Below are positions 48,196 through 48,882 of a stretch of DNA of 64,000 nt, piece after piece. The stretch covers positions 44,196,541-44,260,540 of the forward strand of contig CM109709.1 in assembly GCA_048771875.1 (NCBI GenBank), written 5' to 3'. Each line of letters opens with the position of its first letter. The stretch's first letter is position 1. Both the position numbers and the translations under genes were made by a program. The notes under the pieces are model-generated. The model had not been told where the DNA came from. It saw only the letters and a program-made list of their open reading frames with translations, and did no database searches. The DNA is from Ctenodactylus gundi. Lineage: Eukaryota.

Positions 48196-48640
48196 CAATC
48201 TGTTCTTAACTTAAAGAGTTCATGAAAACCATTCCATTTCCAGTAACATAAACCTACACTATAACTTTTAGATGACCAACAGTTAGCGTTACATTATCTG
48301 GTTCACAAAATTGATTTCACTGACCACAGCATCCCATTAAGTTATATGTAGACTTTTAAACTAGTGATTTGTTTAAAAGTGCCAAGCTAAGTAGCTCCTA
48401 GAAAAACACCAATTACCAGTGGTTTTTTTATATTTTTGAATTTTTAGATTTAAGATTCCCTAATTAAATCCTAGTTCTGTGTCAAAGAGATTATCACAAA
48501 AGATCAAAGCACAACAAAGTGTAGGTCACAGTACCAGATTCATAATTCATATATTTTAAGAATTACCTGGGATCATCAGCTGAGCCCCAGTGAGACTGTC
48601 AACAGTGGAACTCTACTCCAGGTGTTTGCCCTGGTTTTAG

Positions 48641-48712
48641 TCTGCTCAGAGCATGTGTTTAATCACGACAATCAGTTGAAACACGGACTTAACATGCATT
48701 TCATCATGGCAA
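48641..48712 (-). ncRNA. SNORD126: Intronic C/D-box snoRNA, probable SNORD126 orthologue.
   Basis: On the minus strand the RNA has a C box (AUGAUGA), a D' box (CUGA), a C'-like GUGAUUA and a terminal D box (CUGA) followed by GCA. A terminal stem ugc/gca closes it, and an extended outer stem pairs 48624-30 with 48708-14. It lies in the same intronic context as human SNORD126, within the CCNB1IP1 host transcript. Confidence 0.6.
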
Positions 48713-48882
48713 ACTTTAAATGACCGGTAAAGGGCAAACCACCACCGGCTACTCATCCCTACACTAGGAAAACCCTCTCAAGGCTGGAACTAAGGCATTT
48801 CAACTACCACACATCAACAACTAATAACACTGAGCCTCAAATCTTTCTAAGTGAAACTAAAGATTTTTCTCTTTATTTATTT

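Follow-up and report, generated by a model that had tools for sequence, protein, structure and literature searches.

SNORD126 upstream of CCNB1IP1 in Ctenodactylus gundi: a box C/D small nucleolar RNA with a probable guide for 28S rRNA A1310

A stretch of 64,000 nucleotides (nt) of the Ctenodactylus gundi genome (contig CM109709.1 of assembly GCA_048771875.1, positions 44,196,541 to 44,260,540 of the forward strand; hereafter the window) carries on its minus strand, between positions 48600 and 48725, a set of short boxes resembling those of a box C/D small nucleolar RNA (snoRNA). An earlier note on this DNA, made from its letters, had called the segment an intronic SNORD126-like snoRNA with two guide regions. 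The locus thus raises the questions of which snoRNA this is, what it pairs with, and whether it has one guide or two. We conclude, with high confidence, that it holds the gundi ortholog of SNORD126 and that this is a canonical box C/D snoRNA with a D' guide for A1310 of the 28S ribosomal RNA (rRNA). The gundi gene is therefore an already described gene, now seen in another species.

An Rfam 15 scan of the whole window produced three matches above the gathering score, namely SNORD126, SNORA79 and the nuclear RNase P RNA. The SNORD126 match (RF01168, at 48715..48639 of the minus strand) covered the complete model (1-77 of 77) with 96.2 bits and an E-value of 2.4e-20, compared to a gathering score of 55, which bears out the identity proposed earlier. 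The boxes C, D', C' and D, as well as the sequence strings quoted for them, were all found on the minus strand where the note had placed them (Table 1), with 25 nt between C and D' (48700-48676), 6 nt between D' and C' and 10 nt between C' and D. Like most C' boxes, that of the window copy is degenerate, here in its last three positions. The boxes are closed by a terminal stem of 7 bp, one of them U.G, with base-pair probabilities from 0.72 to 1.0 in the partition function of a 129-nt precursor. Every feature of SNORD126 and of the box C/D class that can be read from sequence was found at the locus. The mature RNA is probably a few nucleotides shorter than the 77-nt Rfam span at either end; for SNORD126, the mature ends obtained by curation do not coincide with the annotation, and the 3' ends of box C/D snoRNAs lie at most 5 nt downstream of the D box (Jorjani et al., PMC4914119).

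The antisense element upstream of D', GUCCGUGUUUCAA, forms 13 contiguous Watson-Crick pairs with UUGAAACACGGAC in a 28S rRNA (positions 5742-5754 of contig L117), where A5746 stands opposite the fifth nucleotide upstream of D'. The target search was position-anchored and was made on L117, a ribosomal DNA (rDNA) contig of 71% G+C in which Rfam delimited 18S, 5.8S and the 5' 3.5 kb of 28S. This contig is one of 120 rDNA contigs from a metagenome scan for conserved large-subunit rRNA sequence, and we take its 28S to be mammal-like. The remaining matches of the D' element to the rRNA of L117 were GU-rich 9-11-mers only. Counted from the target A in L117, position -7 is G, +3 is A and +17 is C; since these fit the known Gm1303, Am1313 and Cm1327, the target corresponds to human 28S-A1310.

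The literature names SNORD126 as the guide of 28S-Am1310 (PMC8307265, PMC9226514), and 28S-Am1310 is a real site of low stoichiometry (PMC8393311, PMC8677024). The snoSeeker study, in which SNORD126 made its first appearance, described it as an orphan, with expression in rat confined to thymus and spleen and with conservation noted in rat and dog but not in mouse (PMC1636440). According to the passages on Hebras et al. 2020 in PMC9226514 and PMC8307265, SNORD126 was predicted, then shown, to guide this 28S methylation; mouse has neither SNORD126 nor the methylation, and in rat both are tissue-specific. The main text of Krogh et al. 2016 (PMC5027482), so far as that text goes, mentions neither SNORD126 nor A1310.

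Ortholog loci were fetched via CCNB1IP1 proteins from a database search and were then scanned with Rfam. In 8 amniotes besides the gundi SNORD126 stands upstream of the coding exons of CCNB1IP1, with scores of 107.5 bits in Ictidomys, 107.0 in Colobus, 96.0 in Peromyscus, 107.0 in Molossus, 97.2 in Sarcophilus, 101.5 and 70.6 for two copies in platypus and 84.1 in Alligator sinensis. The similarity to SNORD126 and the conservation of the boxes in other mammals, which the earlier note had proposed to look for, were thus both observed, with invariant box cores. In the alignment of 10 amniote orthologs, alligator and eutherians included, AGUCCGUGUUUCA does not change at all; the nucleotide adjoining D' varies (A, G, C or U), as does the D'-C' loop. 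The window copy has an A next to D', which makes an A-U pair with U1306 of 28S where most mammals have G.U. The helices are conserved as well. The terminal stem is paired in 92.9% of the cells of the alignment; its U.G pair becomes C-G in four sequences, and in platypus an A-U and a U-A pair have both become C-G. Taken together, the three helices are paired in 91.3% of cells, compared to 26-50% when the partners are slid against each other, and in every one of them both members of at least one pair have changed.

The genomic place agrees with the family assignment. In the gundi window SNORD126 lies on the strand of CCNB1IP1, 7.5 kb upstream of the start-codon exon (41184), in the order OR (olfactory receptor), TTC5, CCNB1IP1, SNORA79, SNORD126, RPPH1, PARP2. 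The platypus locus has the same order, which presumably is also the arrangement of human 14q11.2. Squirrel, colobus, bat, Tasmanian devil, platypus and alligator all have SNORD126 upstream of CCNB1IP1, on the same strand and near SNORA79 and RPPH1, so the placement in the CCNB1IP1 neighbourhood, as for human SNORD126, was called correctly. SNORA79 and SNORD126 are co-conserved beside CCNB1IP1 from alligator to eutherians and, since both are present at the alligator CCNB1IP1, the pair predates mammals. In the Peromyscus and mouse loci Rfam returned no SNORA79 above threshold; the Gracilinanus locus that was scanned extended to SNORA79 and ended short of SNORD126. Exact-pattern scans with the C box and guide in collections of metagenome, genome and viral contigs gave no match.

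Two of these loci deserve a separate remark. In Alligator sinensis (locus L012, 5548-5625) SNORD126 and SNORA79 stand upstream of CCNB1IP1, and the 28S antisense element is identical. In platypus there are tandem SNORD126 copies about 400 nt apart (locus L010, 5063-5137 and 5471-5547); the upstream copy has a degenerate C box, GGGAUGA, and a score of 70.6 compared to 101.5 bits, with its antisense element intact. The presence of SNORD126 with an identical antisense element thus reaches to a crocodilian and to monotremes as well as therian mammals.

The mouse presented a special case. In the GRCm39 locus (L002) Rfam found no SNORD126. A second mouse assembly (L003; GCA_000002165.1, CM000222.2), which we take to be the mixed-strain Celera assembly, has an apparently intact copy of 100.2 bits at 3808-3884 that keeps its flanking arms, GUUUGCCC and GGGCAAAC. 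A segment of 892 bp (L003 3237-4128), colinear with the SNORD126 region of Peromyscus, is missing from GRCm39, and the two loci are otherwise about 99% identical. The deletion, at about 4141-4143 of L002 (chr14 51017270-51041311, reversed), has a clean junction, with GGAAGAGCA joined to TTGTATGCC and a GCA microhomology. What has been published as the absence of SNORD126 from mouse may thus reflect a deletion that is polymorphic, and mice as a species may not have lost the gene. If the deletion is strain-specific, mouse strains would provide natural knockouts and a genetic test of one variable rRNA methylation.

On the D side the result was different. The 13-nt string that the earlier note had proposed as a second guide (48662-48650) overlaps the C' box by 3 nt. 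When the spacer itself, AACACAUGCU, was compared with the 18S, the 5.8S and the roughly 3.5 kb of 28S of L117, its best match was 8 bp in 18S, including one G.U, at a site that is not known to be methylated. In the 120 eukaryotic rDNA contigs (416 kb) the spacer had no match of at least 9 bp in the conserved rRNA cores; its matches of that length were to GU-rich spacer and expansion sequences only. Of the two guides that had been proposed, the one upstream of D' holds, with 13 pairs and A1310 as target, and the one upstream of D is not supported, with a spacer of 10 nt and a best match of 8 bp in the rRNA that was searched.

The spacer has a partner within the snoRNA. Its ACAUGC pairs over 6 bp with GCAUGU in the part of the C-D' spacer that does not pair with rRNA, and this internal helix is present in the minimum-free-energy folds. 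In the 10 orthologs, from alligator to eutherians, 96.7% of its cells are paired. The closing G-C pair is A-U in Peromyscus and G.U in Mus, and the series G-C, G.U, A-U reads, in the sequences compared, as a stepwise compensatory change. Two further pairings were considered here and dropped. The second half of the self-complementarity, GUGUUU/AAACAC, is not conserved in Peromyscus, Mus, platypus and alligator and is therefore taken as chance. An accessory pairing of UGCAUGU, in the 5' part of the D' spacer, with ACGUGCG of 28S, 13 nt downstream of the target, amounts by eye to 7 bp, two of them G.U, and the rRNA would have to bulge out 13 nt; it was set aside because the G-to-A change of Peromyscus would break this duplex but is compensated in the intramolecular helix.

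The flanks of the snoRNA are complementary too. The motif GUUUGCC occurs twice, at 48714-48708 and within the upstream arm GUUUGCCC, and the latter can pair with GGGCAAAC downstream (Table 1). This pairing has a base-pair probability between 0.48 and 1.0 in the partition function of the 129-nt precursor, and the nested arrangement of external and terminal stems has one near 1. The upstream arm is invariant in six out of six eutherian orthologs, where adjacent flank positions vary. Eutherians also conserve the downstream arm, where Peromyscus has G for A and so retains pairing as U.G; the arm is weakened in Molossus (GACAAAC, with two disruptive changes) and absent in the marsupial and in platypus. 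We also expressed the flank-flank duplex energy as a z-score relative to dinucleotide shuffles and obtained -2.1 for the window, -3.1 for Peromyscus and -5.5 for Mus, all three beyond the shuffles. It is plausible that the two arms make an external precursor stem that helps to bring C and D together.

The stems of the earlier note were partly right. Its sequences are present, and its inner ugc/gca stem is a part of the 7-bp terminal stem; its geometry of an inner plus an outer stem does not stand. The proposed outer stem, GUUUGCC (48714-48708) with GGCAAAC (48630-48624), was rejected with a probability of 0.0 in the 129-nt precursor; it and the terminal stem cannot form together because they use the same 5' nucleotides. 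In a fragment without the upstream flank the outer stem had -12.1 kcal/mol, compared to -9.6 kcal/mol for the Rfam stem, each in isolation, and it was not in the minimum-free-energy fold of that fragment.

If the gundi gene works as its relatives do, SNORD126 would be expressed as part of the CCNB1IP1 precursor transcript, released from it by intronic processing and trimmed to borders protected by the core proteins. The kink-turn of C and D, closed by the AGUUUGC/GCAGACU stem, would bind SNU13, and NOP58, NOP56 and fibrillarin would complete the particle. The element upstream of D' would then pair with its 28S complement, and fibrillarin would place a 2'-O-methyl group on the A that faces the fifth nucleotide upstream of D', which is A1310 in the human numbering. 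This course of events is taken from what is established for box C/D snoRNAs. If the two further helices have a role in it, the internal one would act in the folded RNA and the external one in the precursor.

Several observations weigh against parts of this account. The search for an element of at least 10 nt upstream of D was negative in rRNA, and it left out the 3' third of mammalian 28S, the small nuclear RNAs (snRNAs), transfer RNAs (tRNAs) and messenger RNAs (mRNAs). The covariation in the internal helix comes from one muroid lineage only, and Sarcophilus, as judged by eye, retains the 6 bp of this helix only if the register is moved by two. The folding z-scores of the 77-mer (-1.15) and of the 129-mer (-1.72) are modest. 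The support for the external stem is uneven, with duplex z-scores of -0.8 in Colobus, -1.4 in Ictidomys and +0.3 in Molossus and no excess in Sarcophilus and platypus; the alligator flanks have a different complement, UUGCAGG/CCUGCAA, at z of -1.3. Finally, the gundi gene would lie in an intron of CCNB1IP1 by homology only, from the human arrangement, in which SNORD126 is intronic (PMC8148486).

With these points considered, SNORD126 is probably a single-guide snoRNA whose D-side spacer is structural, with no second guide. It would be a dual guide if AACACAUGCU also directed 2'-O-methylation on a target outside the search, which could be the 3' part of 28S or some snRNA, tRNA or mRNA, and we regard this as unlikely. 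Both guides are in use in many box C/D snoRNAs, ACACAUGC is conserved from alligator to eutherians, and the C-to-U change next to the D box in Peromyscus and Mus would still permit a G.U pair with a target G. But the same C-to-U change in Peromyscus is matched by a G-to-A change in the 5' partner, as intramolecular pairing predicts. Sarcophilus, moreover, differs at 4 of the 10 spacer positions, which is hard to square with a fixed conserved target; the spacer has only 10 nt, with the C' box immediately upstream, and its matches in 18S, 5.8S and 3.5 kb of 28S stop at 8 bp with one G.U, with none of at least 9 bp in the conserved cores of the 120 rDNA contigs.

Two other views of SNORD126 concern the guide function as a whole. 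Its main role could be non-canonical, either as a protein-binding regulatory RNA (acting through hnRNPK binding and the activation of FGFR2 and PI3K-AKT) or as a precursor of a microRNA (miRNA)-like product, with methylation being incidental. Human SNORD126 is reported to bind hnRNPK in dependence on the C' and D boxes, to activate FGFR2/PI3K-AKT and to affect the growth of hepatoma cells (PMC8148486), its knockdown alters mRNA levels and splicing (PMC9226514), its nt 52-75 were once in miRBase as miR-1201 (PMC3025573), and Am1310 is sub-stoichiometric (PMC8677024). Yet the most strictly conserved block among amniotes consists of the 28S antisense element and the boxes, as selection on a guide predicts, and the RNA has short helices only, with no hairpin like that of a pre-miRNA. 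Such roles do not exclude the canonical one and may coexist with it; that one of them is the main role appears improbable to us. It is still less probable that the gundi copy is a silent relic, conserved in appearance and at the same time unexpressed and dispensable. The loss from GRCm39 through the 892-bp deletion, without known consequence, would fit such a relic, as would the confinement of rat expression to thymus and spleen (PMC1636440) and the lineage-specific substitutions in the window (in the D'-C' loop, at the start of C' and at the A that adjoins D'). However, functional orthologs vary at these positions too, the score of 96.2 bits resembles the 96.0 of Peromyscus and the 97.2 of Sarcophilus, and four boxes, terminal stem, guide and flanking stem are all intact.

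The reading of the gundi locus as a canonical SNORD126 with one guide to A1310 leads to a more specific idea, which we consider possible and on the whole doubtful. SNORD126 might be a conditionally active single-guide snoRNA, in which GCAUGU/ACAUGC ties the C/D end to the 5' part of the D' spacer, and in which the eutherian-specific pair of GUUUGCCC and GGGCAAAC controls rescue from the host transcript. If so, the internal helix and the external stem could explain the sub-stoichiometric Am1310 and the tissue-restricted SNORD126. In any case, the 'orphan' or dual-guide reading found in some literature (PMC8148486) is corrected to one clear 28S guide, with the other side probably structural. For the annotation of the gundi window, the result means a known snoRNA in a non-model rodent, which Rfam recovers automatically.

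The surroundings of the snoRNA in the window were also annotated (Table 1). The spliced CCNB1IP1 (HEI10) product has 277 amino acids with a RING domain and is an exact match to Ctenodactylus gundi KAM5235760.1. The RPPH1 ortholog lies inside a CpG island from which PARP2, on the other strand, also starts. Several of the long open reading frames (ORFs) of the window are translations of repeats resembling short interspersed elements (SINEs), e.g. 10646-11209. The island at 42501-43250 stands between the snoRNA pair and the start-codon exon of CCNB1IP1, and the one at 53251-54000 is 4.5 kb upstream of SNORD126. A transcript begun at the latter, a candidate distal promoter, would carry both snoRNAs in introns of its 5' untranslated region. 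If both islands are promoters, the snoRNAs would be present only in the transcripts of the distal one, which could relate to the tissue-restricted expression of SNORD126 in rat (PMC1636440). A sequence resembling a 5' splice site, CAG/GUAAUUC (48555-48575, minus strand), is located about 75 nt downstream of SNORD126; squirrel shares it, colobus does so partly and Peromyscus does not. A small exon directly downstream of SNORD126 was looked for, and no consistent 3' splice site was found for it.

Table 1. Positions in the window of SNORD126, its elements and the neighbouring features
Feature	Position	Strand	Remarks
SNORD126 gene	48639..48715	-	77 nt; borders of the Rfam model
Putative external stem, upstream arm GUUUGCCC	48739-48732	-	16 nt 5' of the snoRNA
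Terminal stem, 5' arm AGUUUGC	48715-48709	-	Rfam consensus structure, with covariation
C box AUGAUGA	48707-48701	-	GAUGA invariant in the 10 amniote orthologs
Internal helix, 5' arm GCAUGU	48697-48692	-	in the non-rRNA-pairing part of the C-D' spacer
D' antisense element GUCCGUGUUUCAA	48688-48676	-	fifth nt upstream of D' is U48680
D' box CUGA	48675-48672	-	invariant in all orthologs
C' box GUGAUUA	48666-48660	-	6 nt downstream of D'; degenerate, core UGAUU invariant
C'-D spacer AACACAUGCU	48659-48650	-	10 nt; holds ACAUGC
Internal helix, 3' arm ACAUGC	48656-48651	-	pairs with GCAUGU, 6 bp
D box CUGA	48649-48646	-	CUGAGCAG (D box and start of the 3' stem arm) invariant
Terminal stem, 3' arm GCAGACU	48645-48639	-	pairs with AGUUUGC
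Putative external stem, downstream arm GGGCAAAC	48631-48624	-	7 nt 3' of the snoRNA; contains GGCAAAC
SNORA79 (RF00600), H/ACA snoRNA	46766-46620	-	103.7 bits; 1.9 kb downstream of SNORD126
CCNB1IP1/HEI10 coding exons	41184-40849, 38532-38194, 35472-35263	-	
Nuclear RNase P RNA (RPPH1 ortholog, RF00009)	60981-60666	-	215.5 bits; 74% G+C
PARP2-like exons	from 62365	+	
TTC5-like tetratricopeptide repeat (TPR) exon	about 28310-28960	-	near 28.7 kb
Olfactory-receptor ORF	53-592	+	left edge of the window; Pfam 7tm_4, E 7.9e-28
CpG-rich islands	42501-43250, 53251-54000, 60251-61500		

Among known systems, the closest is human SNORD126 with its host CCNB1IP1/HEI10. The gundi copy belongs to the same covariance family and has the same host-gene neighbourhood and strand, and its C, D' and D boxes and the 12-nt antisense core are identical. 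It differs in the A for G next to D', in the D'-C' loop (UUGUCG compared to UCAGCC) and in the first nucleotide of C' (G for C), and from the primate (Colobus) copy at 5 out of 77 positions, all of them variable among orthologs. As judged from the aligned sequences, nothing suggests a different function. SNORA79, on the other hand, shares the host region and the strand of SNORD126 and is of the other class, an H/ACA snoRNA that guides pseudouridylation.

Some intronic box C/D snoRNAs reportedly depend on external stems formed by the flanking intron. SNORD126 resembles them in the complementary flanks that bracket it and that are predicted to stack outside the terminal stem. It differs from them in having a 7-bp terminal stem of its own, so that the external stem would be an addition and not a substitute.

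As for hsa-miR-1201, whose entry we take to have been withdrawn later from miRBase, it is a snoRNA-derived fragment and not an independent miRNA gene. In the fold of SNORD126 we found no pre-miRNA hairpin, that is, no stem of about 22 bp or longer, and only helices of 6-9 bp with large loops. The fragment runs from C' through D of SNORD126 (PMC3025573), and the gundi counterpart is at about 48664-48641.

The target region is common to several guides. SNORD18 (28S-Am1313) and SNORD104 (28S-Cm1327) are the guides of the neighbouring sites. They target, as SNORD126 does, the universally conserved 28S segment CUUGAAACACGGACCAAGGAGUC, and the A at +3 and the C at +17 in L117 fit this numbering. The genes and the antisense elements are different from those of SNORD126. 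The 28S-Cm1327 site is named in PMC8677024, and the sites of SNORD18 and SNORD104 are largely constitutive, whereas Am1310 of SNORD126 is low and variable (PMC8677024).

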